Shown piece by piece: positions 17,943 to 54,362 of a DNA stretch of 64,000 nucleotides. Where the stretch lies: assembly GCA_964482515.1 (NCBI GenBank), contig CAYZXT010000009.1, positions 16,251 through 80,250 of the forward strand, given 5' to 3'. Below the pieces are notes generated by a model, which saw nothing but the letters and a program-made list of their open reading frames with translations, made no database searches and was not told the origin of the DNA. This DNA comes from an uncultured Elusimicrobia bacterium (lineage in GTDB: Bacteria > Elusimicrobiota > Elusimicrobia > FEN-1173). The number at the start of each line of letters is the position of its first letter. The stretch's first letter is position 1. Made by a program: the position numbers and the translations under genes.

Positions 17943-18011
17943 TGACCCCGTTGGCCCGTTTCTTTGGTTACTTTCTTTCGGGCACGCGAAAGAAAGTGAC
18001 ATAATGTCCGC

Positions 18012-18983
18012 ATGCCACCCCCGTGGAAACCGATATTACTTGTCGGGCTATGCCTGATATCCACCGGCGCGGCGCATCCCTGGTCCCGCGCCGGGCATGA
18101 AGCCTCCGCCCTCATCGCCGAAGGCCGCCTCGACCCCGCCACCCAAGCCAAAATCCGCGCGCTCCTCGGGCCCGGCGTCGGGCTGGACGACATCGCCCTC
18201 TGTTCCGACGCCATCAAGCGCCGCTCCGTGAACTGCGCCGGCGCCTTCTTCGTCAAGCGCGCGCCCCACACCAAGGCCTGGCATTACATCGACATCCCCA
18301 TTTCCGACGAACCCGCCGCCGGCGGCCTGCAGCAGTATTGCCCCAACGACGATTGCGTGACGGACCGCATCGCCGACCAAACCAAGGTCCTCAAAGACCC
18401 CGCCGCCCCGCGGCTGGAGAAGCAGGTCGCGCTCATGCACCTGGTCCATTTCGTGGGCGACCTGCACCAGCCGCTGCACTGCGCCGACGACAGGGACGCC
18501 GGCGGCAACGGCAAGAAGGTCTGGTTCATGGCGGGTCCCCGCGCCCGGAAGCCCGCCACCCTCCACCAGCTCTGGGACAACATGGTGGAGAAGGATTCCG
18601 TGCACGACAGGCTGGACGTCCGCGGCCTGGCCCGGTCCCTGGACGGCGCGATCACGGAGGAGGAAGCCGCGGCCTGGGCCAGGGGCTCCACCCACCAATG
18701 GACGATCGAAAGCCACCGCATCGCCCGGAACACGATCTATCCGCAGTACGCGCGGGACAAGGGGAAGGATTTGGGCAAGGACTACCAGGACGCCATGCGC
18801 CCCATCGCCCATGAACAGGTTCAAAAGGCCGGCGTCCGGCTGGCGGTGCTGCTGGACAAGACCCTGGCCGGCGTCACGGTGGAAGACCTCACCCGCGAAG
18901 CCCCGAAGCGGAAGGCGACGCCCGTTCCCACCGGACAAAAACCGCCCAAAGGCGGCGGCCCCATCCCCCTGCCGGGAAGATAG
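18012..18983 (+). CDS. Secreted S1/P1-family nuclease
   Basis: Signal peptide, then WSRAGHEASALIAE...WHYIDIPI...C...ALMHLVHFVGDLHQPLHCADDRDAGGNGKKV...LHQLWD, which are the Zn-ligand motifs of S1/P1 nucleases. Confidence 0.75.
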   Translation: MPPPWKPILLVGLCLISTGAAHPWSRAGHEASALIAEGRLDPATQAKIRALLGPGVGLDDIALCSDAIKRRSVNCAGAFFVKRAPHTKAWHYIDIPISDEPAAGGLQQYCPNDDCVTDRIADQTKVLKDPAAPRLEKQVALMHLVHFVGDLHQPLHCADDRDAGGNGKKVWFMAGPRARKPATLHQLWDNMVEKDSVHDRLDVRGLARSLDGAITEEEAAAWARGSTHQWTIESHRIARNTIYPQYARDKGKDLGKDYQDAMRPIAHEQVQKAGVRLAVLLDKTLAGVTVEDLTREAPKRKATPVPTGQKPPKGGGPIPLPGR

Positions 18984-19004
18984 GTTTTTGATGTCATTCC
19001 GGCG

Positions 19005-19026
19005 CCTTGCCGCTAGGCATGGTCCC
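19005..19026. repeat. Right copy of the direct repeat flanking the YhcG/S1-P1 pair
   Basis: See 16717-16739. Confidence 0.6.
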
Positions 19027-19190
19027 TCTTTGTAAGAAGGGGGGTAGGGTGAGGGTGGGCATTTATCGTGGCACAGCCCGGCCAAATTTCCTAATATGGC
19101 GAAGTGGTTTTCAGACGGAAACAGCGAGGGCGTCTTGAGGGAATCATGGGGCGCGTGAGGTTTGTTTTGGGAAATGATTAGGAGGATTGT

Positions 19191-21977
19191 TTGCCTTTAA
19201 GTTGGAATGAGATTCGTCATCGAGCTATTGGATTTTCACGCGAATGGGCAACGGCTGTGCGTGAAAGATCGGAATCCCAAACTTTTTGGAATGAATTTTT
19301 CCTGGTCTTTGGCTTCCCGCGGAAGAAAGTCGCCCTCTTTGAGGAACCAGTAAAGAAGTTGTCTGGGGAATATGGGTATATCGATCTCATCTGGCCGGGA
19401 ACGTTGTTGGTTGAACATAAGAGTTTCGGTCAAGACTTAAGCAAGGCTGAGTCTCAAGCTTTCCGCTATGCCAGGAGTTTGAACCAAGAGGATTCTCCCC
19501 GCTACATCATCGTTTCGGATTTCGCCCGCATCTCTCTCCACGATTTGGAAGAGGACAAAAGTATTACCTTTCCACTGACTGACTTTCATAAACACATCCA
19601 CGACTTCGCATTTATGTCCGGGTATCAGCAGCATACCTTTCAAGATCAAGATCCTATCAATATCGAAGCCGTCGAAATCATGGGTAAACTCCATGATGTT
19701 CTTGGGGACGGTGGCTACAGCGGCCATAAACTGGAGCGGTTTCTAGTCCGCATTCTTTTTTGCCTCTTCGCAGAGGATACGGGTATTTTCGAACGTGAGG
19801 AATTTCACTTCTTTATACGGAACAGCACCTCCGAGGATGGCTCAGATTTAGGGAACCATCTTGCCCGACTGTTTGACGTCCTAAACACACCAAAAGAAAA
19901 ACGCCAAAAGAACCTCGATGAATCCCTTGCAGATTTACCTTATGTAAATGGGGAACTGTTCGCGGAGAACCTTGGTTTCGCGGACTTCAATAGCGATATG
20001 CGCAATGCGCTTTTGGCCTGCACGCGGTTTGATTGGTCCAAGATATCTCCAGCCATCTTCGGCTCTCTATTCCAAGCGGTAATGGAACCGAAAGAGCGCC
20101 GCCAAATCGGAGCACACTATACCAGCGAGAGGGATATATTGAAAGTTGTTCGGAGTCTATTTCTTGATGATCTCCGCGTAGAATTTGAGGGTATCAAGAG
20201 ATCCACTGGTCAAAGTCGTAAATCTGGATTGAAACGCTTCCATGAAAAAATCTGCGCTTTACGTTTTCTTGATCCGGCCTGTGGTTGCGGTAATTTTCTT
20301 GTTATTACCTACCGTGAACTCCGTGAATTGGAATTGGAAACATTACGGGAGTTGCATCTTACAGGCACCGGTGAGGCAAAAGGATTCCAGCAGGAATTAA
20401 CGCTTGAGGAAGTAAACAGACTATCACTTGTTGATGTGGACCAACTATACGGCATTGAATTGAAGGAATGGCCCGTAAGAATCGCCGAAGTGGCTCTTTG
20501 GTTAATGGATCATCAAATGAACATCAAGGTTTCCGAGACCTTCGGCCAATTGTATCAAAGGCTTCCTCTGAAGAAACGTCCCAACATCGTGCAAGGTAAC
20601 GCTTTACGAATGGATTGGAAAGAAGTCATTCCCCCAGAGAAATGCAGTTACATCCTTGGGAACCCGCCATTTGTGGGGGCCATGTATATGGAGCCAGAGC
20701 AACGGCACGATATGCTGCTTGCAGCGAATAATTTAAATGGTGTTGGTGTTTTGGATTATGTTTCGGCATGGTATTTTGTCGCTTCGGGCTATGTAACGGG
20801 GACAAAAATAAGAGTTGGTTTTGTTTCAACCAACTCGATTACACAAGGCGAGCAGGCGGGAATTTTATGGTCTGAACTGTTTAATCGGGGAGTGAAGATT
20901 CATTTTGCACATCGGCCATTCGCCTGGGATAGTGAGGCCAGAGGAAAGGCTCATGTTCACGTTGTGATAATAGGATTTGGTGTTTTCGACATCCCGGCAA
21001 AAATAATATTTGATTATGATGCTAATCCCGGGAAACCAATCTTGTCGCAGGTTCGTAATATTAATCCTTATTTAGTTGAGGGCATGGACATTTGCATTCG
21101 TAATCGAAGTGAGCCGATTTGTAATGTTCCCAAAATGGCTTGGGGAAGCCAGCCTCGGGATGGGGGAAATTTCCTGATGAGTTCCGAGGGAAAAAAGGAT
21201 CTATTACGTAAGGAACCTGCTGCAATAAAATGGATTAGACCATTCATGGGGGCTGAAGAGTTTTTAAATGGCGTAGAACGATGGTGCCTTTGGTTGGTGG
21301 GTATTCAGCCGCAAGAACTTAACAGCCTTGTTGAAGTCAAAAATAGAGTTGAAGGTGTAAAGCAAATGCGTCTTTCTAGTAAAGCGGAAGCGACCCGAAA
21401 AAAAGCGAGCACACCAACATTATTTGCCCAAATTGCACAGCCAAACTCTGATTATCTTCTGGTCCCATTGGTAAGTTCTGAACGCCGTTCAATTATTCCA
21501 TTTGGCTTCATGTCCAAAGAGGTTATTGCCAGCAATCTTTGTTGCATAGTTTCGGATGCTACGCCATATCATTTCGGAATACTCTCATCGTCTATGCATA
21601 TGGCCTGGGTTCGTCAGATTTGTGGTAGGCTCGAATCTCGTTACAGGTATTCAAAGGATATCGTCTACAACAATTACCCTTGGCCGCAAAATCCGACGGA
21701 CAAACAGAAAGTCGCGGTGGAAGAGGCGGCGCAAAACGTCTTGGACGTCCGAAAGGAATATTCAAAATCCACGTTGGCCGATCTTTACGATCCACTGTCC
21801 ATGCCGCCGAAGCTTGTCAAGGCTCACGCGAACTTAGACCGGGTTGTTGACCTTTGCTATCGCAAGGAATCGTTCACCAGCGAACGCCAGCGCGTGGAAT
21901 ATCTTTTCAATTTATATGAGCGATTGACCGAACCGTTGGTTGCTATGTCTAGTCGGAAAAAGCGAACCAAGACTTAG
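19191..21977 (+). CDS. MmeI-family Type IIL (IIG) restriction-modification enzyme, single-chain (endonuclease, N6-adenine methyltransferase and specificity)
   Basis: 928 aa, about MmeI size. N-terminal YIDLIWPGTLLVEHKS (D...ExK nuclease motif, as in MmeI IDLFWKGKLLVEMKS). Methyltransferase motif I FLDPACGCGNFL and motif IV LGNPPFVG. TTG start with a taGGAGGa SD. The region is clearly more AT-rich than its surroundings. Confidence 0.75.
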   Translation: MPLSWNEIRHRAIGFSREWATAVRERSESQTFWNEFFLVFGFPRKKVALFEEPVKKLSGEYGYIDLIWPGTLLVEHKSFGQDLSKAESQAFRYARSLNQEDSPRYIIVSDFARISLHDLEEDKSITFPLTDFHKHIHDFAFMSGYQQHTFQDQDPINIEAVEIMGKLHDVLGDGGYSGHKLERFLVRILFCLFAEDTGIFEREEFHFFIRNSTSEDGSDLGNHLARLFDVLNTPKEKRQKNLDESLADLPYVNGELFAENLGFADFNSDMRNALLACTRFDWSKISPAIFGSLFQAVMEPKERRQIGAHYTSERDILKVVRSLFLDDLRVEFEGIKRSTGQSRKSGLKRFHEKICALRFLDPACGCGNFLVITYRELRELELETLRELHLTGTGEAKGFQQELTLEEVNRLSLVDVDQLYGIELKEWPVRIAEVALWLMDHQMNIKVSETFGQLYQRLPLKKRPNIVQGNALRMDWKEVIPPEKCSYILGNPPFVGAMYMEPEQRHDMLLAANNLNGVGVLDYVSAWYFVASGYVTGTKIRVGFVSTNSITQGEQAGILWSELFNRGVKIHFAHRPFAWDSEARGKAHVHVVIIGFGVFDIPAKIIFDYDANPGKPILSQVRNINPYLVEGMDICIRNRSEPICNVPKMAWGSQPRDGGNFLMSSEGKKDLLRKEPAAIKWIRPFMGAEEFLNGVERWCLWLVGIQPQELNSLVEVKNRVEGVKQMRLSSKAEATRKKASTPTLFAQIAQPNSDYLLVPLVSSERRSIIPFGFMSKEVIASNLCCIVSDATPYHFGILSSSMHMAWVRQICGRLESRYRYSKDIVYNNYPWPQNPTDKQKVAVEEAAQNVLDVRKEYSKSTLADLYDPLSMPPKLVKAHANLDRVVDLCYRKESFTSERQRVEYLFNLYERLTEPLVAMSSRKKRTKT

Positions 21978-22007
21978 ATCAAAAAGGTGTTTTTATGAAA
22001 AAGAAAC

Positions 22008-22036
22008 CGGTACCGGAGTTGACAGATTGACAATCA
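22008..22036. repeat. Copy 2 of the TTGACA-containing element (ccggtaccggagttgacagattgacaatc)
   Basis: Sits immediately after the MmeI-like stop codon. See 1721-1746. Confidence 0.6.
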
Positions 22037-22077
22037 GGTTCAGTACTAGATTTGATTTGTTGAAGGAGCCCCCGCAA

Positions 22078-22212
22078 TGAAAACCAAAAAGCCCCTCTGC
22101 CAAGCCATCAACACGAAAGGGAAGAAGTGCATTGTCCCTGCCGTGCCCGGCAGCAAATTCTCACCTTCCTACAGACAGGTGCCACGGCTAGCGCCGACGG
22201 GTTTCCGACATA
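22078..22212 (+). CDS. Hypothetical 44-aa basic peptide (MKTKKPLCQAINTKGKKCIVPAV...)
   Basis: Short ORF not in the track. It contains a copy of the 21-bp repeat acaggtgccacggctagcgcc also found inside 23199..24242. Coding status is uncertain. Confidence 0.2.
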
Positions 22213-22369
22213 AGAAGAAATAACTGTCCTTTTCTCCCGTTATTCCCAGCCCGTTTCCCTAAAACTTCAGATTAAATCCCGCTAAGCTCCAGATTCTTCC
22301 TCTATGATGAGGTGAGATATGGTTCTTGATGGTCGTTCACATATATGTTAACCTTGAGGAGATGGCGGC

Positions 22370-22792
22370 GTGAGCACTCATTCTGAGAAGCGGAATTGCG
22401 TGCTTTATTCCGGCCGGTTCTATTCGGCCGAATGGTATTACAGGGAGGACGGCGGGATGCCGGCTCTCGAATATTATCGGGAACTCCCTATCCATGATCG
22501 AGTGCGGCTATTACAGATCATTAAGCACCTGTGCGACGCTCCCTACGGGACAATCCTTCCCGTGACGCTTTACAGGATCGAAGATCGGGAAAACAAGATT
22601 TACGCGTTTAAGCCGAGGGACGAGCGATTCTTCAGTTTTACGATGGAGGGCGCAAGGGTCATCGTTACGAACGCTTACCGCAAGCATTCACAACAGATGA
22701 CCAAGGCGGATCTGGAGTCCTTGAAAACAGCTGTTCGCTATCGGAACGATTATTTGAGGCGCCTGAAAGAGGGGACATATTATGAAGGCTAA
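22370..22792 (+). CDS. Gp49-like (HigB/RelE superfamily) type II toxin
   Basis: GTG start with a GAGGAG SD. WYYREDGGMPALEYYRELPIHDRVRLLQIIKHL... and C-terminal ARVIVTNAYRKHSQQMTKADLESLKTAV fit the phage Gp49/HigB-type toxin pattern (W.V.YY...; IVLLH.F.KK.QKTP..EI). Confidence 0.6.
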   Translation: MSTHSEKRNCVLYSGRFYSAEWYYREDGGMPALEYYRELPIHDRVRLLQIIKHLCDAPYGTILPVTLYRIEDRENKIYAFKPRDERFFSFTMEGARVIVTNAYRKHSQQMTKADLESLKTAVRYRNDYLRRLKEGTYYEG

Positions 22793-23132
22793 AAAGAAAA
22801 TCAAAAAGGCAAAGAGCACCTTTGATCGGGAAATGGAAAACCCGGAATTCAGGAATCTTTTCGAGGAATCTTGGCCCGCCTTCCAAGTGGAAGTCCAGCT
22901 GCTGAAAGCCTTGGAAGGCAAGCAATGGTCCTATTCCGACCTCGCGAAGGTATTGCACACGCAGAAGAGCGCCATTTCGCGCGACCTGAAAGGCGGCGGC
23001 ATTCGGTCTGCTTCCATCACGCGGATCGCGAAGATGGCGGAAGCCCTGGGAATGAGATTTATCCCGTTCTGCGTCTCCGAGAAGAAGGCGAGGGAAATTC
23101 TTCCCGCTATCAAGAAACTCCTGGCCGCGTAA
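22782..23132 (+). CDS. HTH (XRE-like) antitoxin partner
   Basis: Overlaps the toxin gene by 11 nt. WSYSDLAKVLHTQKSAISRDLKGGGIRSASITRIAKMAEALGMRF is an HTH motif. Confidence 0.6.
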   Translation: MKAKKKIKKAKSTFDREMENPEFRNLFEESWPAFQVEVQLLKALEGKQWSYSDLAKVLHTQKSAISRDLKGGGIRSASITRIAKMAEALGMRFIPFCVSEKKAREILPAIKKLLAA

Positions 23133-23140
23133 TAGGGATT

Positions 23141-23170
23141 CGTGCCGGAGTTGACACGTTGACAATCGAC
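23141..23170. repeat. Copy 3 of the TTGACA-containing element (cgtgccggagttgacacgttgacaatcgacc)
   Basis: Lies between the antitoxin stop and the DUF1016-SNase start. It could also act as a -35 region. Confidence 0.6.
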
Positions 23171-23198
23171 CAGCCTATTCTTTAAGTACAATACCTCC

Positions 23199-24242
23199 AT
23201 GCCGAAAGAATCCATCCCCTCGGTCGCCCATCCCGCCTACGCCAAGCTCCGTTCCGCCGTCCACAAAACCCTCCTCCTCGGTCAGAAACAAATCGAACAA
23301 GCCAAAGTCCGTACCTACTACGAAACCGGAAAACACATCCAAGAACATATCGCCCGCTACGGTTCGCGCTCCGAGCATTACGGCGCTCAAGTGGTGGAGA
23401 AGCTTTCGGTTGATTTGGGGATTAGCACCCGGGTCTTGCGGCAGTGTGTGCAGTTCGCCCGGAACTTCAAGATTGTGAACGCGCGTTCACAATCTTTGCC
23501 GGCCCAATTGCCTTGGACGCATTACCGTCAACTGATGACCATTCCGGATGAGGACGCGCGGATTTCCCTGATGAAAAGGGCCGAGAAGTCCGAATGGAGC
23601 GAACGCCAGCTGGCGGAGAAGATCCGCCTTGAGGTGCGAGAAGCAAAGTCCCCGTCAACCAACGGCGGGCATAGTTCAATGGTAGAAAAGAAGTATCCCA
23701 AGCTCATTCCCAAGCGCGGCGAGCTTTACACGTACCGCCTCATTGCGCCGGAAGCGGTTGATGGCGAAGCGGGTCTGTGGATTGATTTGGGTTTCCAGGT
23801 GCGGCGCACCTTTCCACAAACAGGTGCCATGGCTAGCGCCAAGGGCGGACAGATCGTGGAATCCAAAAAGACGGGGGAAATCTATTCCGCGGTCCCGTCC
23901 AAGCGGACGGAGGCGGACTTGTTCACCTTCCAGGCGCCGGTGGAGCGGGTGGTGGACGGCGACACGCTGATCGTGAACGTCGACCTGGGGTTCGACACGG
24001 GCGTGCGGCAATACCTGCGGTTGCGCGGCATCAATTGCCCGGAGCTGGACACGCCGGAGGGCAAGCGGGCCAAGGCCTTCGTGGAAAAGGAATTGGGGAA
24101 AGCGCGGCGGATCATCCTGACGAGCTCCCGGTCCGACAAGTACGACCGCTACCTGGCGGACGTGTTTATTGAGTCCACCAACGGCGAACGATATCTGAAC
24201 CAGGCGCTGCTGGACGAAGGCCTCGCGGTCCGGATGGAATAG
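23199..24242 (+). CDS. Fusion nuclease: DUF1016 (YhcG N-terminal) domain plus staphylococcal-nuclease-like (SNase/thermonuclease) domain
   Basis: The N-terminal VRTYYETGKHIQEHI...GAQVVEKLSVDLGIS...LRQCVQFARNF...LPWTHYRQLMTIPDEDAR...WSERQL resembles the YhcG N-domain. The C-terminal VERVVDGDTLIVNVDLGFDTGVRQYLRLRGINCPELDTPEGKRAKAFVEKELGKARRIILTS...DKYDRYLADVFIE...NQALLDEGLA resembles SNase. There is an internal partial duplication: AVDGEAGLWIDLGFQVRRTF resembles VVDGDTLIVNVDLGFDTGVRQY. Confidence 0.7.
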   Translation: MPKESIPSVAHPAYAKLRSAVHKTLLLGQKQIEQAKVRTYYETGKHIQEHIARYGSRSEHYGAQVVEKLSVDLGISTRVLRQCVQFARNFKIVNARSQSLPAQLPWTHYRQLMTIPDEDARISLMKRAEKSEWSERQLAEKIRLEVREAKSPSTNGGHSSMVEKKYPKLIPKRGELYTYRLIAPEAVDGEAGLWIDLGFQVRRTFPQTGAMASAKGGQIVESKKTGEIYSAVPSKRTEADLFTFQAPVERVVDGDTLIVNVDLGFDTGVRQYLRLRGINCPELDTPEGKRAKAFVEKELGKARRIILTSSRSDKYDRYLADVFIESTNGERYLNQALLDEGLAVRME

Positions 24243-24305
24243 CCCTCCCAATCTTCATCCCTCCTTCAGTCGTTCTTCAGACTTAAAAAGTAATCTCTCC
24301 TCCAT
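24243..24305 (+). promoter_or_regulatory. Conserved ORF6N leader, copy B
   Basis: agccctcccaatcttcatccctccttcagtcgttcttcagacttaaaaagtaatctctcctcc, about 80% identical to copy C at 26283-26340. Confidence 0.5.
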
Positions 24306-24337
24306 GAATTGTGCATGATGAATGGGAGGACTAGAGG

Positions 24338-24354
24338 TGGTCGCAAATTGCGAC
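24338..24354. repeat. 17-bp palindrome ggtcgcaa-a-ttgcgacc upstream of ORF6N-2 (the same core as the intragenic palindrome of ORF6N-1)
   Basis: Exact match to 2036-2052. It sits ~35 bp upstream of the probable ORF6N-2 start. Confidence 0.7.
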
Positions 24355-24386
24355 CGCCTTCGACCACTCAAATTCTTGGAGGTTTT

Positions 24387-24914
24387 ATGCGAGCTGTAAT
24401 GAAAACCGAACACATTCAATCGATGATATTCCTGATTCGCGGGCGCAAGGTCATGTTGGACCGTGATTTGGCGGCGCTTTATGGCATTGCCACAAAGGTC
24501 CTTAAGCAGGCTGTTAAGCGGAATCATTTGCGATTCCCGGAGGATTTCATGTTTGAACTGTCTGCGGAAGAGCAGTCAAATTGGAGGTCACAATTTGTGA
24601 CCTCCAATTCTTCCCTGAATAAGGGACTCCGGTGGCGTTCAATGGCATTCACTGAGTATGGTGTGGCCATGCTTTCCGGCGTTCTGAAAAGTGAAAGGGC
24701 CGTTCAGGTTAATATCGCCATCGTTCGGGCATTTATCGACATGCGGCGGATGATTTCGGAAACACGAGGGTTGGCGGAGAAATTGGCGGAGCATGAGAAA
24801 AAGATCGGGGGACTGGCGAACGATGTCCGGCATATGTTCGACCTGCTACAGCCGTTGCTGGATGGACCCACTAAAAAACCCGGGAAGATCGGGTTCGGAA
24901 TGCGACAGATTTAG
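24387..24914 (+). CDS. ORF6N-domain protein (full length)
   Basis: MKTEHIQSMIFLIRGRKVMLDRDLAALYGIATKVLKQAVKRNHLRFPEDFMFELSAEEQSNWRSQFVTSNSS...[35 protein letters not shown]. The track ORF starts at 24309; the start was chosen at the ATG four nt after GGAGG. Confidence 0.7.
   Translation: MRAVMKTEHIQSMIFLIRGRKVMLDRDLAALYGIATKVLKQAVKRNHLRFPEDFMFELSAEEQSNWRSQFVTSNSSLNKGLRWRSMAFTEYGVAMLSGVLKSERAVQVNIAIVRAFIDMRRMISETRGLAEKLAEHEKKIGGLANDVRHMFDLLQPLLDGPTKKPGKIGFGMRQI
24579..24609. repeat. 31-bp perfect palindrome inside ORF6N-2 (aattggaggtcacaa-t-ttgtgacctccaatt)
   Basis: 15-bp arms. It sits at the position homologous to the ORF6N-1 palindrome, encoding NWRSQFVTSNS. The core ggtcAcaa/ttgTgacc differs from the ggtcGcaa/ttgCgacc of ORF6N-1 by a compensatory base-pair change. 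Confidence 0.8.
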
Positions 24915-25570
24915 CGGGCGATGAGGGCGTTGTACGCCCGGATGGCGGCGTAGGCGTCGTTGGCGGCGTAGAGGAGTTGCAGTTCGCTGAGGATCGGGAG
25001 CCCCCAGTTGGACGTGCCCTGCTTTTTGGATTTGAGGAAGCGTTGTTTGAAGAGCAGCGCGATGCCCACCTTGGAGCCCACGCCGCGGCCGAAGCCCTTT
25101 TCGGCGAAGAGCGTTTCGAGGTCCACCACGCCGTGGGGCTCGACGCGCAGTTTCTTGCGGATGCGCGACAGGTCGTCCCCCAGGCCGAAACCCACTTTTT
25201 TGAGGCTCTTAAAAGAGATGAGTTCGGCGGCGGCCTGGCGGCATTCCGGCTGGTTCAGCATGAACACGTAGCCGCGCGTGGCGGTGGCGAACTGGACGAC
25301 GTGGGGGCCGGTGGAGACCTGTCCTTTATGGAAGGTGGGTTTGGATTCGGTGTCGAAGCCCACCACGCTTTCGGCCGCGAGCTCCTTGAACGCCCGCTGC
25401 GCGAGGGCCGGCGTGTTCACCGCGAGGATGTCCCCGCGGCGCAGGGCGTGGAACGGCGGAAGGGCCGCCATTTCCTCGCGCGTGGGCCAGTGGGCCGGGC
25501 GCTGGCGGTTCGGGACGCGCGGCGGCGCGGAGGGTTTGAACAGTTTTTTGAGCCAGCGGCGGATGACCAA
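24911..25570 (-). CDS. 3'-5' exonuclease domain protein (RNase D / WRN-exo-like, DEDDy family)
   Basis: VVGFDTESKPTF...VVQFATATRGYVFML...KKVGFGLGDDLSRI...VVDLETL...SNWGLPILSELQLLYAANDAYAA carries the Exo I-III motifs. Confidence 0.65.
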   Translation of the reverse strand: MVIRRWLKKLFKPSAPPRVPNRQRPAHWPTREEMAALPPFHALRRGDILAVNTPALAQRAFKELAAESVVGFDTESKPTFHKGQVSTGPHVVQFATATRGYVFMLNQPECRQAAAELISFKSLKKVGFGLGDDLSRIRKKLRVEPHGVVDLETLFAEKGFGRGVGSKVGIALLFKQRFLKSKKQGTSNWGLPILSELQLLYAANDAYAAIRAYNALIAR

Positions 25571-25576
25571 GGGGGA

Positions 25577-26212
25577 TTACGGTTTCCGGAACAGCGAGGC
25601 GTCCACCGGGCCGGGGGTGAACTCGACGGCTTCCTCGGTCCGCCGGAAGACGGTGGTGTTGGCCTGGGAGGAGTGCAAAACGATTTCGGCCTTCAGGACC
25701 GCGCCCGTCTCGGCGTCCACCCAGGCGTCGACGCTGCGCACGGAGTCCGGCAATTTCACCTTGGCGTGGTAGCGCCGGGCCTTGCGGCCCGCCACTGTTT
25801 CGGTCTCGCCCGCCTCGCCGGTGTAGGCCTTCCGCCAGAAGCGGATCTCGTGGAGCTCCGCCTCCGTGGGTTTGTGGGAATACTCGGAGGGCTCCGTGGC
25901 GTGCGCGCCGTCGGGCGAAGGGGCGTAGACGATCTTTTCGAACAGGGTCTCGCCGTCGAAGAACCGCGTCACCTTGTATTCGGCGGGGGGCGCCATGAAG
26001 CGGTCCTCCCGCGCGTCGGCCTCGGTGCGGAAGCGCTTCCCGTCGGTGTGGATCCTGACGCGCTCCGCGGTTTTCGTGCCGGCCGTTTCGTTCTCCCGGA
26101 TGACCGTCCAGGTGCCGCTGAAGGGCGAGTCCTGGACGCGGCTGGGCGAGCATTTCTTGAGCAGGAAAGCGAAGGCGGCGACGGCGAGGACGGCCAGGAG
26201 CAGGTTCTTCAT
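25577..26212 (-). CDS. Secreted/lipoprotein hypothetical protein
   Basis: Signal MKNLLLAVLAVAAFAFLLKKCS. No recognisable catalytic motif. Confidence 0.4.
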   Translation of the reverse strand: MKNLLLAVLAVAAFAFLLKKCSPSRVQDSPFSGTWTVIRENETAGTKTAERVRIHTDGKRFRTEADAREDRFMAPPAEYKVTRFFDGETLFEKIVYAPSPDGAHATEPSEYSHKPTEAELHEIRFWRKAYTGEAGETETVAGRKARRYHAKVKLPDSVRSVDAWVDAETGAVLKAEIVLHSSQANTTVFRRTEEAVEFTPGPVDASLFRKP

Positions 26213-26282
26213 GGCCTGATTGTAAGAAACAACCGCCGCCGGTTCAAGGGCGGAGATTCACCCGACCCGCTTCCGAGGCCTT

Positions 26283-26340
26283 CCTCCCAATCTTCATCCT
26301 CCCTCCCGCGGTTCTTCAGAATCAAAAAGTAACCTTTCCT
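26283..26340 (+). promoter_or_regulatory. Conserved ORF6N leader, copy C
   Basis: cttcctcccaatcttcatcctccctcccgcggttcttcagaatcaaaaagtaacctttcctgcgg. Confidence 0.5.
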
Positions 26341-26530
26341 GCGGTTCCCGGAAGATTTCGCATTTCGCCTGAATAAAGAGGAATATGAGTCTTTAAGATT
26401 CCAAACTGGAATCTTAAAGAGAGGACAGCACGCCAAGTATCTGCCATTGGTATTCACTGAGCAAGGCGTTGCCATGCTCTCGAGCGTTCTCCGGAGCAAA
26501 CAGGCGGTTCAAGTGAACATCGCCATCATG
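26341..26530 (+). pseudogene. Truncated ORF6N-domain gene fragment (third paralog)
   Basis: My in-frame translation gives [64 protein letters not shown]. It lacks the N-terminal IRG(Q/R)KVMLD half and has no proper start or stop. It contains the 31-bp palindrome 26390-26420 (tctttaagattcca-aac-tggaatcttaaaga). Confidence 0.5.
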
Positions 26531-26577
26531 CGAGTTCCCCTACTCCCTTGATAGTAAGTAGCTTATAAACTACACTT

Positions 26578-26925
26578 ATGGAGGCCGGGTTGGAAATCAA
26601 ACCCCTGAAGATTGAATATTATTACGCGAGGGATGGCCGGGTTCCCTATAGGGAATGGTTTTATTCCTTGAAAGATATGAAAACCCGGCAGATTATCATT
26701 GCACGCTTAACGCGGGTGGAGCGGGGATTGTTGGGAGATTCTAAGTCCATTGGTTCGGGCGTTCATGAACTCCGGATTGATAAAGGACCAGGATATCGTA
26801 TTTATTTTGGACGACAGGGCGATCACGTCATCCTGCTTTTATTAGGCGGCACTAAGAGCAGCCAAAGGAAAGACATTGAAAAAGCCCATGATTATTGGGT
26901 GGATTATTTAAGGAGACAAGGATGA
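26578..26925 (+). CDS. Addiction-module killer protein (RelE/ParE superfamily, TIGR02683-like)
   Basis: YREWFYSL...RLTRVERGLLGDSKSIGSGVHELRIDKGPGYRIYFGRQGDHVILLLLGGTKSSQRKDIEKAHDYWVDY. Confidence 0.7.
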   Translation: MEAGLEIKPLKIEYYYARDGRVPYREWFYSLKDMKTRQIIIARLTRVERGLLGDSKSIGSGVHELRIDKGPGYRIYFGRQGDHVILLLLGGTKSSQRKDIEKAHDYWVDYLRRQG

Positions 26926-27236
26926 AGAAGCCCACGTACCATGAAGATCTCATTGAAAGCTTGAAGGACCCTAAATACGCCTTGGGGTATCTGAACGCCT
27001 GTTTGGAAGATGAGGACGAAGGGGTGTTCCTCCTGGCATTGAAGCATGTGGCCGAAGCCCATGGCGGGTTGAGCGGACTGGCGAAGAAAACGGGATTGAA
27101 CCGGGAACATCTTTTTCGAATGTTGTCCAAGAACGGGAATCCGCGCCTGGAAAACCTGCGGCAGGTGGCCGGCGCGTTCGGGTGGAAGATCCGCTTCGTG
27201 GAGATGAAATCCCCGAAACTGCGCCGCGCCGCTTAA
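26922..27236 (+). CDS. Addiction-module antidote protein (HTH, TIGR02684-like)
   Basis: ATGA overlap with the toxin gene and an AGGAGA SD. LEDEDEGVFLLALKHVAEAHGGLSGLAKKTGLNREHLFRMLSKNGNPRLENLRQVAGAFG. Confidence 0.65.
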   Translation: MKKPTYHEDLIESLKDPKYALGYLNACLEDEDEGVFLLALKHVAEAHGGLSGLAKKTGLNREHLFRMLSKNGNPRLENLRQVAGAFGWKIRFVEMKSPKLRRAA

Positions 27237-27451: not shown

Positions 27452-27604
27452 CTCTGGAAAAAAATCGAAGGGGGGTCCTGTTGATTGGTGGGAAAGCGTG
27501 GGGGCGTCTCTACTTCTAGTTTAGCAAACCCGCCGGGGGATTGGTCGCCTGGACATAAGTTGTTTTCCGGGCAAGACTTATCCGCGAGTTCTATAATACT
27601 CCCC

Positions 27605-28528
27605 ATGCCCTCGAGCCGCACGTTTCAAAGGATGGTTTTGCTGGCCGCTTTCTTCGCGTCCGCGCCCGGATTTGTCTTCGCGGCGCCGGAGGAAGCGTCG
27701 ACCGCCGAACGGCAGCGGCACCACCAGCTGGGCGTCGACGTGGGGTCCGACGTCGATCCCGACATCCTGTCGCCCTCCGCGCCCCAGGGCCTCGACCGCC
27801 GCTTCGAGTGGGACTACCGCTTCGTGATCAGGGAAGATCGGGCGGGCGTCAACGCCCAATACCACAATCCCAAACGCCTTCAAAAACTCAGCTTCAGCTA
27901 CCGCCAACGCATGGACTTCCCCAGTCGCGCGGGGCTGGGCCCGACGCGAAACCGCCTGTACAAATCCCTCGGCCAGAAGACGCGCTCGCGGGACGTGAGC
28001 GGCTACGTGGCGGGATCCGCCTTGGTGTTGAACCCCTATTGGGGGATCAGCCTGGTGCACGACGAATATGTGAAAGACAACGCCAACGAGCTTTTCAACC
28101 AGCACGCCACGACCCTTGGGCTGGGCTACAGTCCCCTGGGCGACAACCGGGGCCGGCCCTGGAGCTACACCATTGATCCTTCCGTGACCTACGCGCGGTT
28201 CCACGGGCTCAAACCGGTGCCCAACCAGCATTGGGAAAGCTTCGGCTATTCCCTCGGATCAAGCTTCTATTACGGCCTCGACTGGGTCCGCGTTCCCCTC
28301 GGGCGGTCGTTCAAATTGGACCGCCTGAAGCTGAGCGTGTCCGTGTCCGACGCCGAGGTTTCGGACTTCGCGATCAACGGGGGCGTCGACCTGACGGCCT
28401 ACGCCACCCGCCACATCAAGCTGAAGCTGGGCGTCGAAAACAGCTACACGCCCGAAACGGGGAAGCATTCCTTCCGCCTGCGCGCGGGGCTGAGCCTGCG
28501 GCTGACCTGGTCCGACCTGAACTTCTGA
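27605..28528 (+). CDS. Outer membrane beta-barrel protein (DUF481-like)
   Basis: Signal MPSSRTFQRMVLLAAFFASAPGFVFAAPE. C-terminal ...LRLTWSDLNF. A TATAAT at 27592-27597 lies only ~7 nt before this ATG, so the mRNA may be leaderless. The track ORF begins at TTG 27485. Confidence 0.5.
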   Translation: MPSSRTFQRMVLLAAFFASAPGFVFAAPEEASTAERQRHHQLGVDVGSDVDPDILSPSAPQGLDRRFEWDYRFVIREDRAGVNAQYHNPKRLQKLSFSYRQRMDFPSRAGLGPTRNRLYKSLGQKTRSRDVSGYVAGSALVLNPYWGISLVHDEYVKDNANELFNQHATTLGLGYSPLGDNRGRPWSYTIDPSVTYARFHGLKPVPNQHWESFGYSLGSSFYYGLDWVRVPLGRSFKLDRLKLSVSVSDAEVSDFAINGGVDLTAYATRHIKLKLGVENSYTPETGKHSFRLRAGLSLRLTWSDLNF

Positions 28529-28539
28529 CGATAAACACT

Positions 28540-28563
28540 GTTGCCGCATCGTGCGGCTTTTGG
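28540..28563 (+). terminator. Rho-independent terminator after the OMP gene
   Basis: GCCGCAtcgTGCGGCttttgg. Confidence 0.45.
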
Positions 28564-28634
28564 TATCTTTCCTCCGTGCCGTCCATCCCCGGCCCGACTC
28601 TCCCCACTCAAAAGAAAATGGAACCCATCTAAAC

Positions 28635-29531
28635 ATGCAAAACCGACACCAAGACGATAACGAACGCCGGTTCTACGCCGGACAAGCCGTCGATCCCTCG
28701 CCCCGCATCCGCCTCGAAGACGGCAGCTCGGAGCTGACCATGCGCGCCATGGACCTGGTGAGCCCCATCGGCATGGGGCAGCGCGGCTACATCGTCGCGC
28801 CGCCGGGTTCCGGCAAGACCACTTTCCTCAAGCACATCTGCAACGCCGTGGCGAAGTCCCACCCGGAGATCAAGCTTTACTGCCTGCTGATCAACGAGCG
28901 GCCGGAGGAAGTGACGGACTTCAAGCGGAGCGTGACGGCCGAAGTGCGGGCGTCGTCCTCCGACGAGAGCTACGAGCACCACGCGCAGATGGCGGACGCG
29001 CTGATGCGGCAGGCCATCCGCGAGGCGGGCGAGGGGAAAAACGTGATGATCGTGATCGATTCGCTGACGCGGCTGGCGCGGGTGCACAACGCGCAGCGGC
29101 ATTCCAGCGGGCGCACCATGTCCGGCGGCCTGGACTCCGGGGCGCTGGAAATCCCGCGGCGGATCTTCGGCGCGGCGCGGAAGATCGAGAACGGCGGTTC
29201 CCTGACGATCCTGGCGACGGTGCTCGTGGAGACCGGCAGCCGAATGGACGACGTGATCTTCGAGGAGTTCAAGGGCACGGGCAACATGGAAATATTTCTG
29301 TCGCGGGAGATGTCCAGCCTGCGGATCTTCCCGGCGGTGGACATCGCCAAGAGCGGCACCCGCAAGGAAGAGCTGCTGTTCGACGCCGACGAGCTCGACG
29401 CGGTGCGGAAACTGCGCCGGGCGCTGTCCCAGATGAAGCCCGTGGACGCGGCGCGGGAGCTCGTCGACCAGTTGAAAAGCTATCCCACCAACAAGGCGTT
29501 CCTCGCCGCGGTCAAAAGCTCCGGGATTTAA
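28635..29531 (+). CDS. rho: Rho-like hexameric ATPase: Rho C-terminal (RecA-type) domain only, lacking the N-terminal RNA-binding domain
   Basis: MDLVSPIGMGQRGYIVAPPGSGKTTFLKHICNAVAKSHPEIKLYCLLINERPEEVTDFKRSV...VMIVIDSLTRLARVHN...ENGGSLTILATVLVETGSRMDDVIFEEFKGTGNMEIFLSREMSSLRIFPAVDIAKSGTRKEELLF aligns almost residue-for-residue with the E. coli Rho Q-loop, P-loop and R-loop region. Only ~45 aa precede the IGxGQRG motif; full-length Rho has ~150. Confidence 0.75.
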   Translation: MQNRHQDDNERRFYAGQAVDPSPRIRLEDGSSELTMRAMDLVSPIGMGQRGYIVAPPGSGKTTFLKHICNAVAKSHPEIKLYCLLINERPEEVTDFKRSVTAEVRASSSDESYEHHAQMADALMRQAIREAGEGKNVMIVIDSLTRLARVHNAQRHSSGRTMSGGLDSGALEIPRRIFGAARKIENGGSLTILATVLVETGSRMDDVIFEEFKGTGNMEIFLSREMSSLRIFPAVDIAKSGTRKEELLFDADELDAVRKLRRALSQMKPVDAARELVDQLKSYPTNKAFLAAVKSSGI

Positions 29532-30168: not shown

Positions 30169-30501
30169 ATGGGCAGGGTCGCGGTCTATTCGGTTTCGGT
30201 GGTCAAGCGGGAGAGGAACACTCCGGTCTACAACATCGGCGTGATGTCGCGGCTGACCGGGCTTCCCGTGCACACGCTGCGGTGGATCGAGCAGCAGGGG
30301 CTGATCTCCCCGTTCCGGACCGACGGAAACCAAAGGCTCTTTTCGGAGGAGGATGCGGACTTGATCCAGCGGATCCGCGAGTTGATGGACCAGCACGTCA
30401 ACCTGCCGGGGATTCGGATCATCCTCCAGCTGAAGACGGGAAAAGCCGGGGCTTCCCGGCCGGCGCAGAAAACAAAACGGCCAGCCCGACCGCCCAAGTA
30501 G
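30169..30501 (+). CDS. hspR: MerR-family heat-shock repressor HspR
   Basis: YNIGVMSRLTGLPVHTLRWIEQQGLISPFRTDGNQRLFSEEDADLIQRIRELMDQHVNLPGIRIIL. GGAGG SD 7 nt upstream of the ATG. Confidence 0.65.
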   Translation: MGRVAVYSVSVVKRERNTPVYNIGVMSRLTGLPVHTLRWIEQQGLISPFRTDGNQRLFSEEDADLIQRIRELMDQHVNLPGIRIILQLKTGKAGASRPAQKTKRPARPPK

Positions 30502-30573
30502 GGTCTATATTTTTTTACCGCATAAATGGCACTCGCGTCGCGTGAGTGCCAGAACAAAAAGGAGGTAACCGCC

Positions 30574-31005
30574 ATGCTGTTAGCAGAACTCACCAACAAA
30601 ATCTGGGATCCGCTTGAGGCCGTCAGCCAGATCCGCAACGAGATGAACCGGATGTTCCGGGAGAGGACCGGGTTCCCGGCCTTCCCCGCCTTGAACATTT
30701 GGGCGGGCGAAAACCAGGCCGTCGTCACGGCCGAGATGCCGGGCGTCGATCCCCAGGACATCGACATATCCGTGGAGGAGAACGTCCTCTATTTGTCGGG
30801 CTCCCGGAAATGGGACGAGCCGAAGGCGGAAGACGTCGTCCATCGGGTCGAATGTCCCAACGGTTCTTTCAGCCGCACGCTGAAGCTGCCGTTCCGCGTG
30901 GACGCGGATCGCATCCAGGCGACCTGTTCCAAGGGCGTCCTCACCGTCGTCTTGCCGCGCGCGGAGCAGGACAAGCCGAAAAAAATCCAAGTGAAAGCGG
31001 CCTAA
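30574..31005 (+). CDS. Hsp20/alpha-crystallin small heat-shock protein
   Basis: AGGAGG SD before the ATG at 30574. NIWAGENQAVVTAEMPGVDPQDIDISVEENVLYLSGSRK...FSRTLKLP...GVLTVVLPR. Confidence 0.75.
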   Translation: MLLAELTNKIWDPLEAVSQIRNEMNRMFRERTGFPAFPALNIWAGENQAVVTAEMPGVDPQDIDISVEENVLYLSGSRKWDEPKAEDVVHRVECPNGSFSRTLKLPFRVDADRIQATCSKGVLTVVLPRAEQDKPKKIQVKAA

Positions 31006-31028
31006 AAGCCGGAAGGAGGAGATGAGTT

Positions 31029-31421
31029 ATGTCCAACAATATGACCGTGCAGCAAAGCCAGGAAACCCAGCCCGTCCGGGCGGAGCGGAAGGTGTTCGTG
31101 CCCGCCGTGAACATCTACGAGACGAAGGAAAACATCGTGCTCATGGCGGACATGCCGGGCGTGGATGAAAACAGTGTCGACATCACGCTGGAGAACGACG
31201 TGCTGACCGTGCAGGGACGGTCGTCGGTGGAGGCGCCCCGGGGGCTTGAGCCGGCCTACGCCGAGTATTCCTCGGGCGACTACCGCCGCTCCTTCACGCT
31301 CTCGGCGAACCAGATCAACCGGGACGGCATCGAGGCCGCGCTGAAGAACGGCGTGCTGAAGGTGACGCTGCCCAAGACCGAGGCCGTGAAGCCGAAGAAG
31401 ATCGCGGTGAGGGTGGAATAG
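31029..31421 (+). CDS. Hsp20/alpha-crystallin small heat-shock protein (second copy)
   Basis: VNIYETKENIVLMADMPGVDENSVDITLENDVLTVQG...FTLSANQINRDGIEAALKNGVLKVTLPK. Confidence 0.75.
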   Translation: MSNNMTVQQSQETQPVRAERKVFVPAVNIYETKENIVLMADMPGVDENSVDITLENDVLTVQGRSSVEAPRGLEPAYAEYSSGDYRRSFTLSANQINRDGIEAALKNGVLKVTLPKTEAVKPKKIAVRVE

Positions 31422-31962: not shown

Positions 31963-33207
31963 TTACTTCCACCGTCGCCGGTGTTGTTGTGGTTTCTGGT
32001 GCTGATGGTGTCCGTGGGAAGAATGCCGGTTGTGGTGCTGCCCCGGGCGGCTGGAGGACGCGTTCACGGGCAGCCTGGGCGGGTTGTTGTACCGGAAGTC
32101 CGGCACCACGGCCCGCGGGAAGACGACCCGGATGAACCGCTCGATGGCCTTCAGGAAACTTTCCTCCGACGGATCGTAGAGCGTGATGGCGTCGCCCACG
32201 CCGTAGGCCCGGGCGGTGCGTCCGACCCGGTGGACGTAGTCCTCGGGGTGGCGGGGCACGTCGAAGTTCACCACGTGGCTGATGTGGCGCACGTCGATGC
32301 CGCGCGCCGCGATGTCGGTGGCCACCAGGATCTGCGTGCGGCCGTGGCGGAAATCCTCCATGGCGGTGACGCGCTGGTTCTGGGACCTGTTGGAGTGCAG
32401 CGTGCCGACGCGGTAGCCCTTTTGCTGGAGCCGCTTCGCCACCTTGTCCGCGCCGTGCTTGGTCCGCATGAACACCAGGACCGATTTCATTTCCGTGGAA
32501 GACAGCAGCGTTTCCAAGAGCTCGAACTTCTGCGATTGGATCACGGGGTAGGCGATCTGGGCGATGCCCTCGGCCACCGTGGTCGGCTTGGAGATCTGGA
32601 TGCGCAGCGGGTTGTGCATGGCGAAGGCCGCGATGCGCTCGATCTCGTCGTGGAGCGTGGCGGAGAAAAGCTGCGTCTGCCGCTGTTTCGGGACGCGGCC
32701 CAGGATGGCCTTGATGTCCGGCAGGAAACCCATGTCGAGCATGCGGTCCGCTTCGTCGAGGATCAGGTGTTCCACGCGGTCCAGGTTGAAACTGCCGCGC
32801 TTCAGGTGATCGAGGAGGCGTCCGGGCGTGGCGACCAGAATGCCGGCGCCGTGCCGAACCGCCGAGACCTGGGGCCCGTATCCCACGCCGCCGATGACCA
32901 CGGCGACTTTCATGTGGGTGAACTTGGCGCATTCCCTCACCGTCTGCTCGACTTGCGCCGCGAGCTCCCGCGTGGGGACCAGGATCAGCGCCCGGAGCCC
33001 GGGCTTCGGGTTCTTGAGGAGATGGTTCAGGAGGGGGAGCGTGAAGGCCGCGGTCTTTCCGCCGCCGGTCTGGGCGCAGCCGAGGATGTCGCGGCCTTCC
33101 AGCGCCGACGGGATCGCCTGCGTTTGGATGGGGGTCGGTTCCTTGAACCCCATGGCGCCGACGGCGCGCACGAGGTCGTGATGAAGTCCTAGTTTTTGAA
33201 ATGGCAT
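31963..33207 (-). CDS. rhlE: DEAD-box ATP-dependent RNA helicase (RhlE-like)
   Basis: Q-motif FKEPTPIQ, motif I AQTGGGKT, PTRELA, DEAD in LILDEADRMLDMGF, SAT, HRVGRTAR. Basic His/Gln-rich C-terminal tail. Confidence 0.85.
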   Translation of the reverse strand: MPFQKLGLHHDLVRAVGAMGFKEPTPIQTQAIPSALEGRDILGCAQTGGGKTAAFTLPLLNHLLKNPKPGLRALILVPTRELAAQVEQTVRECAKFTHMKVAVVIGGVGYGPQVSAVRHGAGILVATPGRLLDHLKRGSFNLDRVEHLILDEADRMLDMGFLPDIKAILGRVPKQRQTQLFSATLHDEIERIAAFAMHNPLRIQISKPTTVAEGIAQIAYPVIQSQKFELLETLLSSTEMKSVLVFMRTKHGADKVAKRLQQKGYRVGTLHSNRSQNQRVTAMEDFRHGRTQILVATDIAARGIDVRHISHVVNFDVPRHPEDYVHRVGRTARAYGVGDAITLYDPSEESFLKAIERFIRVVFPRAVVPDFRYNNPPRLPVNASSSRPGQHHNRHSSHGHHQHQKPQQHRRRWK

Positions 33208-45651: not shown

Positions 45652-45689
45652 TGGAATTCTCCTTGTTCCCCCCGAGGGGATATGAAATA

Positions 45690-45915
45690 AAAAACCCACT
45701 TCCAACGCGGAAATGGGTAACGGAGAATCAAACGCCGTAGATGCCGGCGGCCTCCCTATAAATAGGAACAACGCTACCGGCGAGCCCTTCCCGCGAAGGA
45801 AAATCTACCTTTTAGTCGACCGGACTTAGACGCGTTTGCGCGCGCCCATTACCGTTGCGGGGCAGTCCCGGAATCACACCGGGTTCCTCTAAAAGGGAGT
45901 GAGCGAAAGAACTGG
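45690..45915 (-). ncRNA. Candidate cobalamin (AdoCbl) riboswitch in the 5' leader of the TonB-dependent receptor gene
   Basis: Reverse-strand RNA reads AGAGGAACCCGGUGUGAUUCCGGGACUGCCCCGCAACGGUAAUGGG (forward 45845-45890). This resembles the conserved Cbl-riboswitch core (GGAA.CCGGUG.GAAUCCGG.ACGGCCCCGC.ACUGUAA). It sits in a ~440-nt leader with AAGGAG 5 nt before the AUG. Confidence 0.5.
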
Positions 45916-46001
45916 CCTGAGTATGAGAAATTAATCGGCGGGTGTAAAGTAAAAATAATTGGAACTGTTTTGTGGATAGGGGCGTTCCCTTAATTTCAAG
46001 C

Positions 46002-54298: not shown

Positions 54299-54362
54299 AA
54301 ATCAGGGACTAAGAGAATTTTATCCGCTCCTGCTCCCTCTCCCTGGAGGGGAGAGGGTCGGG

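Follow-up and report, generated by a model that had tools for sequence, protein, structure and literature searches.

A Rho paralog without the N-terminal RNA-binding domain in Elusimicrobiota and Omnitrophota

Introduction

What remains of a Rho factor when its primary RNA-binding site is gone, and is the remainder a working protein or a relic? The question is raised by one gene in a 64,000-nucleotide stretch of DNA from an uncultured Elusimicrobia bacterium (contig CAYZXT010000009.1 of assembly GCA_964482515.1, positions 16,251 to 80,250 of the forward strand; the whole stretch is called the window below). A preliminary description, made from the sequence alone, had presented the product of this rho-like gene as a Rho homolog consisting only of the C-terminal ATPase domain (CTD), and had proposed that it was either a paralog with altered RNA loading or one half of a split Rho. 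We conclude that it is a minimal Rho paralog, termed A-type hereafter, which is devoid of the N-terminal domain (NTD) and made of a linker and a RecA-type ATPase/translocase domain.

The gene and its product

The only Pfam domain found in the 298-aa protein is PF00006, the generic RecA-type nucleotide-binding domain; neither PF07498 (Rho_N, the N-terminal helix bundle) nor PF07497 (Rho_RNA_bind, the OB-fold primary RNA-binding site) gave a match. The NCBIfam Rho model NF006886 was hit with 383 bits, above its cut-off of 315, and residues 11-292 aligned with model positions 131-412 of 413, so that the protein starts at the NTD/CTD boundary; with TIGR00767 the score was 367 bits, under the 509-bit cut-off. 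In the PDB, the best sequence matches were to chains of Rho, with E=7.5e-90 at best (residues 17-293 of the query against chain residues 148-425), and a tblastn search with E. coli Rho (419 aa) aligned its residues 116-419 with nucleotides 28629-29522 at 47% identity. An AlphaFold2 model, computed from an alignment of 70 sequences, had a mean predicted local distance difference test (pLDDT) of 93.7 and a predicted template modelling score (pTM) of 0.91. Compared with Rho chains (root-mean-square deviation 1.2-1.9 Å), it gave template modelling (TM) scores of 0.90-0.93 when normalised on the query and of about 0.66 when normalised on the target; the protein therefore covers the CTD part of Rho only, and this is the pattern to be expected if the predicted fold is that of the CTD and nothing else. 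The NF006886, PDB, Pfam and AlphaFold2 results thus agree with the first claim of the preliminary description.

The motifs of the protein are listed in Table 1. Judged from its residues, the ATPase site and the central-channel RNA loops are complete on the Rho CTD fold. The alignment to Rho had been described as running through the Q-loop and the R-loop to the C-terminus, and all these motifs are indeed present; the P-loop, however, had been misplaced, since the segment taken for it, IG(K/M)GQRG, corresponds to IGMGQRG at residues 45-51, ahead of the actual Walker A motif. What has been lost is the whole primary RNA-binding site, OB fold and helix bundle both. The composition of the gene is native and host-like: its GC content at third codon positions is 0.87, similar to that of neighbouring host genes, in a window of 60% GC.

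Table 1. Coordinates of the features discussed (positions in the window unless another locus is named)
Feature	Position	Strand	Remarks
rho-like coding sequence, 298 aa (ATG 28635 to TAA 29529-29531)	28635..29531	+	Open reading frame, domain and structure evidence
N-terminal tail MQNRHQDDNE, very short, not basic	28635..28664	+	Sequence
Family-conserved connector motif RRFYAGQAVDPSPRIRLEDG	28665..28724	+	Aligned with E. coli Rho linker residues ~129-151
Walker A / P-loop APPGSGKT, residues 55-62	28797..28820	+	GSGKT invariant in 120/120 relatives
Catalytic Glu and Arg valve, E88 R89 (E. coli E211 R212)	28896..28901	+	Invariant
Walker B region MIVIDSLTR, D142 (E. coli D265)	29046..29072	+	Asp invariant
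Q-loop, secondary (central-channel) RNA-binding site, RHSSGRTMSGGLDSGA	29097..29144	+	Conserved
R-loop, secondary RNA-binding site, ETGSRMDD	29229..29252	+	Arg for E. coli K326 in 117/120
Arg-finger segment SGTRKE, R243 (E. coli R366)	29352..29369	+	Invariant
Upstream 347-aa gene, TGA stop at 28526-28528	27485-28528		No Pfam match; stop 106 nt before ATG 28635
Terminator-like hairpin GCCGCA-TCG-TGCGGC + TTTT	28543..28561	+	Closes the 347-aa gene and separates it from rho
DUF1016/YhcG-type nuclease genes	16848-17942; 23199-24242		In island; the latter with SNase domain and PADLOC PDC-S02 matches
S1/P1 nuclease	18012-18983		In island
MmeI-family type IIL restriction-modification enzyme	19191-21977		In island
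Helix-turn-helix protein	22782-23132		In island
Gp49/HigB-HigA-like toxin-antitoxin pair	26578-27236		In island
Cobalamin riboswitch	45762-45922	-	Rfam RF00174, 32.7 bits, just above gathering threshold
B-type rho loci	L009:9755-10855; L011:9755-10861; L012; L013; L187:10001-11200 (CP096137.1); L189:733-1902		Elusimicrobiota

The missing N-terminus

That the helix bundle and the OB fold are absent is borne out by the lack of PF07498 and PF07497 and by tblastn, with which the E. coli Rho NTD gave no match in any frame of the window. The preliminary description had added that the upstream gene stops at 28528 with a terminator of its own and that no room is left for an N-domain in another frame. 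Both statements hold, given the position of the stop and of the hairpin with its TTTT run, the 106-nt gap and the negative NTD search; nor did tblastn bring out another rho in the window. One alternative in-frame start, GTG 28551, would add 28 residues. It lies within the hairpin, the 28 residues have no counterpart in the homologs, the N-termini of which match ATG 28635, and we regard this start as spurious.

The A-type family

The A-type family was sampled as the best 120 matches in a collection of 5.8 billion proteins. All are 285-376 aa long, 71-100% identical and with PF00006 as their only domain; the conservation of the short form in related genomes, which had been left to be checked, is thereby established. 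The named members are called 'transcription termination factor Rho' and come from Elusimicrobia/Elusimicrobiota or Omnitrophica/Omnitrophota metagenome-assembled genomes (MAGs), the nearest two (86% and 84% identity) carrying the Elusimicrobia label. Invariant in the 120 relatives are GSGKT, E88 and R89, the Walker B Asp, the Q-loop, the R-loop (save for the substitution given in Table 1) and the Arg finger; the conserved central-channel loops read SGRTMSGGLD (Q-loop) and TGSRMDD (R-loop), and the invariance of the motifs also held in the broader alignment of 70 sequences. The N-terminus is conserved as well, in the form (D/E)E.E.RF[YF]AG.A[VI]DPSPRIRLE, which matches the NTD-CTD connector of E. 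coli Rho. The tails that precede it vary: half of the members (58 of 116), including the window protein (MQNRHQD), have 12 aa or less, and 46 of 116 (about 40%) have 25-84 aa, rich in Arg, Pro, Ser, His and Asn, with a net charge of +2 to +8.

The gene is intact and, from these patterns of conservation, appears to be selectively maintained. The 'headless' Rho proteins among which it falls make up a large family, highly conserved but as yet uncharacterised. A-type proteins are found mainly in Omnitrophota and Elusimicrobiota, and they are distinct from the canonical Rho of the same phyla.

A wider clade of Rho proteins without NTD

A scan of GTDB genomes and a second protein search added further Elusimicrobiota relatives without any OB fold. 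The B-type proteins are 365-408 aa long and start with MMNEE; their best 120 matches all have PF00006 only. In place of the NTD they carry, joined directly to the connector and the CTD, a tail with a median length of 99 aa, made of 31% Gly, 19% Gln and 12% Arg, with an RRRRRR core and a net charge of about +9. The C-type proteins (loci L008 and L010) have shorter basic tails. The N-termini of the clade thus come as three solutions: no tail, a short basic tail, or a Gly/Gln/Arg-rich tail of about 100 aa.

In a neighbour-joining tree (277 CTD columns, 53 sequences, 200 bootstraps), the A, B and C types and one short Sericytochromatia sequence formed a clade in 183 of the 200 replicates; the values were 184 for the A core, 200 for B and 187 for B and C together. 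The clade shares the signatures RPEEVTDFKRS, ASSSD.SY and DSLTRLARV[HY]N, and the window protein combines all its marks, i.e. a linker and CTD only, the signatures and a place in the monophyletic group. A-type CTDs are 52% identical to canonical Omnitrophota/Elusimicrobiota Rho and 48% to E. coli Rho; among themselves the canonical proteins of the two phyla share 72% identity, and with E. coli Rho 67-68%. In an exhaustive library clustered at 50%, only one or two entries stand for the A family (384 and 382 bits); the scores then drop to about 320 bits, the level from which Rho proteins of every length appear. On such grounds the NTD-less clade is an old paralog lineage that has evolved separately, rather than a recent truncation of a resident rho. 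Its nearest neighbours in the tree are 365-447-aa forms in which the OB fold is weak or undetectable, which suggests a stepwise erosion of the NTD in a 'Group B'-like lineage. Within the A clade, the Elusimicrobiota group nests among otherwise Omnitrophota and unlabelled members, a position more suggestive of horizontal transfer than of core inheritance.

Two observations concern other branches of the clade. The Sericytochromatia sequence (P0127, 301 aa, MEZ0371657.1, from a 4.2-kb contig of a Candidatus Sericytochromatia MAG) is an NTD-less Rho labelled as coming from a non-photosynthetic cyanobacterial class, in a phylum otherwise reported to be without Rho. The B-type gene stands in a conserved array, mreCD-pbp2-rodA-RNase E/G-amidase-murI-DUF5677-rho-ridA, also present in a closed 3.8-Mb genome, and B-type may be the main Rho of those Elusimicrobiota lineages. 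There, in at least four genomes (L187:9400-9999, L189:132-731, L013:3977-4522 and L011:9177-9722), the DUF5677 gene reaches up to the start of rho or overlaps it; its product is a candidate partner of the B-type Rho. The gene is absent from the window and from the A-type loci.

Co-occurrence with another Rho

Canonical full-length Rho proteins exist in both phyla (loci L015, L034 and L062 for Elusimicrobiota, L050 for Omnitrophota), and the Omnitrophota canonical family is large: its best 120 matches all have the PF07497, PF07498 and PF00006 domains. In Omnitrophota, a short and a canonical protein could be paired. The short one, P0069 (334 aa), matches the window protein at 75% identity; the canonical one, P0383, has 472 aa with Rho_N, Rho_RNA_bind and ATPase domains. 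Both come from NCBI, JGI and ENA sources, and for each of them the longest contig measures 521,238 bp. This is the only large-contig coincidence between the A-type and canonical 120-member lists, and a chance match of such a six-digit figure is very unlikely. The context of P0383 is the classical array polA-coaE-rho-rpmE-prfA-prmC-aroA; that of P0069 is an unrelated housekeeping run with metK, ahcY, pyk, an ABC-F gene and DUF981. The matches listed by a metagenome scan with P0383 were relatives at 62-79% identity. Comparison of the A list with the B list gave two more coincidences of contig size (7123 and 3270 bp), both of which proved on checking to be due to chance.

Among the matches listed in the GTDB scan were A-type genes of two cultured gammaproteobacteria. 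That of Gilvimarinus polysaccharolyticus YN3 (L006:9935-10891, on chromosome scaffold NZ_LFIJ01000002.1; 318 aa, 67% identical to the window protein) is preceded 4-6 kb upstream by IS110-family and DDE transposases; directly downstream of it lies a convergent DEAD-box helicase. That of Spartinivicinus ruber (WP_163836858.1, 319 aa, 70% identical) is on plasmid pB, NZ_CP048880.1, at 54176-55135 (L085:11920-12879; also L086). It is a lone opposite-strand gene adjoining the holin genes, at the border with small early and regulatory genes of a lambda-like phage-plasmid, and the same element provided the only A-type match among the 2.9 million viral contigs of IMG/VR; its moron-like position suggests that phages have a use for a headless Rho. 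Since a 2730-genome survey reports no Pseudomonadota without a functional Rho (PMC11347177), the A-type gene of these two bacteria is very probably an extra, horizontally acquired copy.

Comparison with known Rho forms

Canonical Rho (E. coli; PDB 1PV4, 3ICE and 8Q3P; TIGR00767) and the window protein are alike in their CTD, with 47-48% identity and the high query-normalised TM scores given above, and the ATPase motifs, the Q-loop, the R-loop, the Arg finger and the NTD-CTD connector are all kept. They differ in that the window protein lacks the entire NTD, stays below the TIGR00767 cut-off and belongs to a separate paralog clade. The 'Group B' or 'Type 4' Rho proteins (D'Heygere 2013; Moreira 2024, PMC11347177), for instance that of Fusobacterium nucleatum, are also short, often second copies, with conserved catalytic residues, and the nearest neighbours of the NTD-less clade in the tree fall in the same length class. 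However, as presented there, they lose the helix bundle only and keep the OB domain, whereas the window protein lacks the OB fold too. Moreira et al. classify Rho into Types 1-4 and set proteins with a single Rho domain aside as 'Rho-like', with no analysis of them in the main text; the window protein, with one of the three Rho domains, fits that definition and not that of a 'functional Rho'. A recognised short paralog is described by NF041509 ('paralog_Rho2, transcription termination factor Rho, short form', 360 aa), with which the CTD aligned at positions 78-359; nevertheless, the score was 329.8 bits against a cut-off of 628, and the first ~77 model positions are without counterpart. That cut-off was out of reach for every short form tested, whether A, B or other.

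The Arg/Pro/His-rich tails of the relatives, or the Gly/Gln/Arg-rich ones with their RRRRRR core, resemble in composition the disordered RNA-affinity regions of Type 2 Rho (M. tuberculosis, Bacteroides, Micrococcus). In Type 2, however, the NTD is intact and the disordered region comes in addition to it, whereas in the present clade it replaces the NTD, and the window protein itself is nearly tail-less. More distant members of the same RecA-type fold family (PF00006), the FliI/type III secretion ATPases and the F1 ATPase beta subunits, were matched at about 89 bits against cut-offs near 600 and are without the Rho-specific Q-loop and R-loop. Our literature search found nothing specific on Rho in Omnitrophota or Elusimicrobia, or on NTD-less Rho: the clade is called 'Rho' by PGAP and other annotation pipelines and its category is mentioned in passing, but it is uncharacterised as a clade.

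Function and alternative explanations

The explanation that we favour, and hold to be fairly probable, is that the A-type protein is an intact and maintained minimal motor of the Rho family, accessory to another Rho, which loads onto RNA independently of the primary binding site (PBS). It would form a hexameric ring held by the CTD and would, to judge from its motifs, translocate 5'->3' on RNA as Rho does, next to another Rho of the same host. The motifs that serve hexamer cohesion, ATPase activity and translocation lie in the CTD, rut recognition being supplied by the NTD crown (PMC12360218). As there is neither a rut-recognising crown nor a basic tail in this variant, its loading would have to be PBS-independent, and rut sites would not be selectable by it. 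The most plausible route, by analogy, would be a cofactor acting on the CTD, because of the precedent of the NusG KOW domain (NusG-KOW): according to PMC7819879, which summarises Lawson 2018, it binds the translocase domain of Rho and favours closure of the ring in the absence of a rut ligand, even on RNAs without C residues. Co-assembly with canonical Rho subunits could be another route, and relatives with a basic or RGG-like tail may use it to capture RNA non-specifically.

The preliminary description had left two readings side by side. Its paralog with altered RNA loading is supported by the distinct NTD-less clade, the P0069/P0383 co-occurrence and the gammaproteobacterial copies; its split Rho, in which a separate N-terminal RNA-binding polypeptide encoded elsewhere would dock on the CTD, is unsupported and in our view very improbable. 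The protein does start exactly at the domain boundary, and Moreira et al. (PMC11347177) mention genomes with 'Rho-like' proteins made up solely of the N-terminal domain plus the RNA-binding one; but the window holds no NTD-like sequence, no adjacent gene is conserved among the loci examined, the clade is old and divergent and not a recent fission, and in many relatives the place of the NTD is taken by a disordered tail, basic or rich in Gly, Gln and Arg, which argues for replacement. That the gene is a pseudogene in decay, or a full-length rho cut short by an assembly or frameshift error, is hardly credible any longer, effectively refuted as this is by the family data. The short length is the sole point in its favour, against an identical architecture in hundreds of independent assemblies, the upstream gene closed by its own stop and hairpin 106 nt away and the absence of an NTD remnant in any frame; the upstream sequencing error and the disrupted motifs, either of which could have undone the preliminary description, are excluded by the short architecture and conserved N-terminus common to the family and by motifs that are all intact and invariant.

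Whether the A-type protein acts beside another Rho or alone is a finer question. A sole Rho, i.e. a PBS-less motor that replaced the canonical factor and ensures genome-wide termination without rut recognition, presumably via RNA polymerase or NusG, seems unlikely to us. It would agree with the very high conservation (71-86% identity across many MAGs), with the native composition, with the housekeeping-like contexts of loci L001, L003 and L186, with the lack of a further rho in the window and with the B-type gene standing, like a vertically inherited core gene, in its conserved Elusimicrobiota array, closed genome included. Yet the one genome in which linkage could be assessed also has a canonical rho, canonical Rho families are found in both phyla, A-type genes have reached gammaproteobacteria and a phage-plasmid, and the nesting of the Elusimicrobiota A-type group hints at transfer. 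Distinctly unlikely is a regulatory or 'poison' subunit that would co-assemble with or cap canonical Rho, lower the number of PBS sites per ring and tune or block termination, with an anti-termination outcome which might be analogous to that of phage Psu or host Rof. Hetero-hexamers have been raised for pairs of Rho paralogs by Moreira et al. (PMC11347177), A-type and canonical Rho co-occur in Omnitrophota, and the Spartinivicinus copy sits in a typical moron position for host-manipulating genes, which keeps a Rho-modulating role in play. Against it, a pure poison has no need of the invariant Q-loop, R-loop, catalytic Glu and Arg finger; such constancy of the motor residues speaks against a subunit that is purely inert. 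Moreover, with a CTD identity to canonical Rho of about 50% the interfaces may be incompatible, only one phage-borne copy was met among the viral contigs searched, and the A-type protein had no match in PHROGs and, in PADLOC, only a 32-bit, P-loop-level one to mad8. To an accessory paralog in the broad sense, which includes the PBS-independent motor and the poison subunit as both assume a second Rho, we attach roughly two-thirds of our confidence.

Several points weigh against the accessory, PBS-independent motor. The A-type neighbourhoods are wholly different from one another, and a conserved partner gene did not emerge from the contexts compared (window, L001/L002, L003/L004, L186, L190, L006 and L085); for the genes flanking rho in the window (347 and 176 aa), none of the other loci retrieved contains a homolog. 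The Omnitrophota co-occurrence derives from an identical six-digit contig size and not from both genes read on one record. No Elusimicrobiota A-type gene could be linked to another Rho of the same assembly, only the A/B pairing having been tried: by proximity of NCBI accessions, the A-type protein P0002 (MBI4396390) and the B-type proteins shared no assembly. In the present organism, of which 64 kb of a 91-kb contig were in view, the second rho is inferred and not seen. Finally, the tree was built by neighbour-joining only and the taxonomy labels of MAGs may be unreliable.

Significance

For the clade as a whole, we put forward only tentatively, as a possible though doubtful extension, that it represents a naturally PBS-free Rho, a ring translocase that would terminate transcription or clear RNA and R-loops and would be recruited by a CTD-binding cofactor (NusG-KOW or RNA polymerase) or, in the sister forms, by a fused RGG-like tail; the tail-bearing form may be the only Rho in some Elusimicrobiota. 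If true, recognition of RNA by the primary site would not be obligatory for Rho-dependent termination. How Rho reaches RNA polymerase is debated, between rut binding by the N-terminal crown followed by tracking and riding on the polymerase (PMC12360218), and the family is natural material for this debate, with the motor and the central-channel residues kept, the crown gone and N-termini of graded length. Its variants would allow tests of the need for a primary site, of outsourced ring loading and of the division of labour, or mutual regulation, between paralogous Rho motors. The significance is limited by the likely accessory status of the gene, and the function proposed is a prediction from sequence and model.

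There is also a consequence for annotation. Every CTD-only protein tested passed the 315-bit cut-off of NF006886 (333-419 bits), and such proteins are thus named 'transcription termination factor Rho'. Because this cut-off admits them, counts of 'Rho present' in genome surveys can be inflated and mislead.

Neighbouring genes in the window

The region just upstream (16848-27236) is a defence- or mobile-looking island with a low-GC segment (44-50%), in which the MmeI-family enzyme is encoded; its nuclease, restriction-modification, helix-turn-helix and toxin-antitoxin genes are given in Table 1. Downstream of rho, a MerR-family regulator and two Hsp20 genes (30169-31421) form a heat-shock-type module, followed by a 135-aa gene of no assigned family. 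A DEAD-box RNA helicase gene (31963-33207, minus strand) is convergent to rho, 2.4 kb downstream of it. It was considered as a partner, the helicases of Gilvimarinus and the window being 42% identical, and rejected as a coincidence, as the gene is absent from the other A-type loci. Further away, a TonB-dependent receptor gene (43729-45771, minus strand) lies directly downstream of the cobalamin riboswitch, and an RND efflux operon (46089-50821) is found on the strand opposite to that of the receptor gene.

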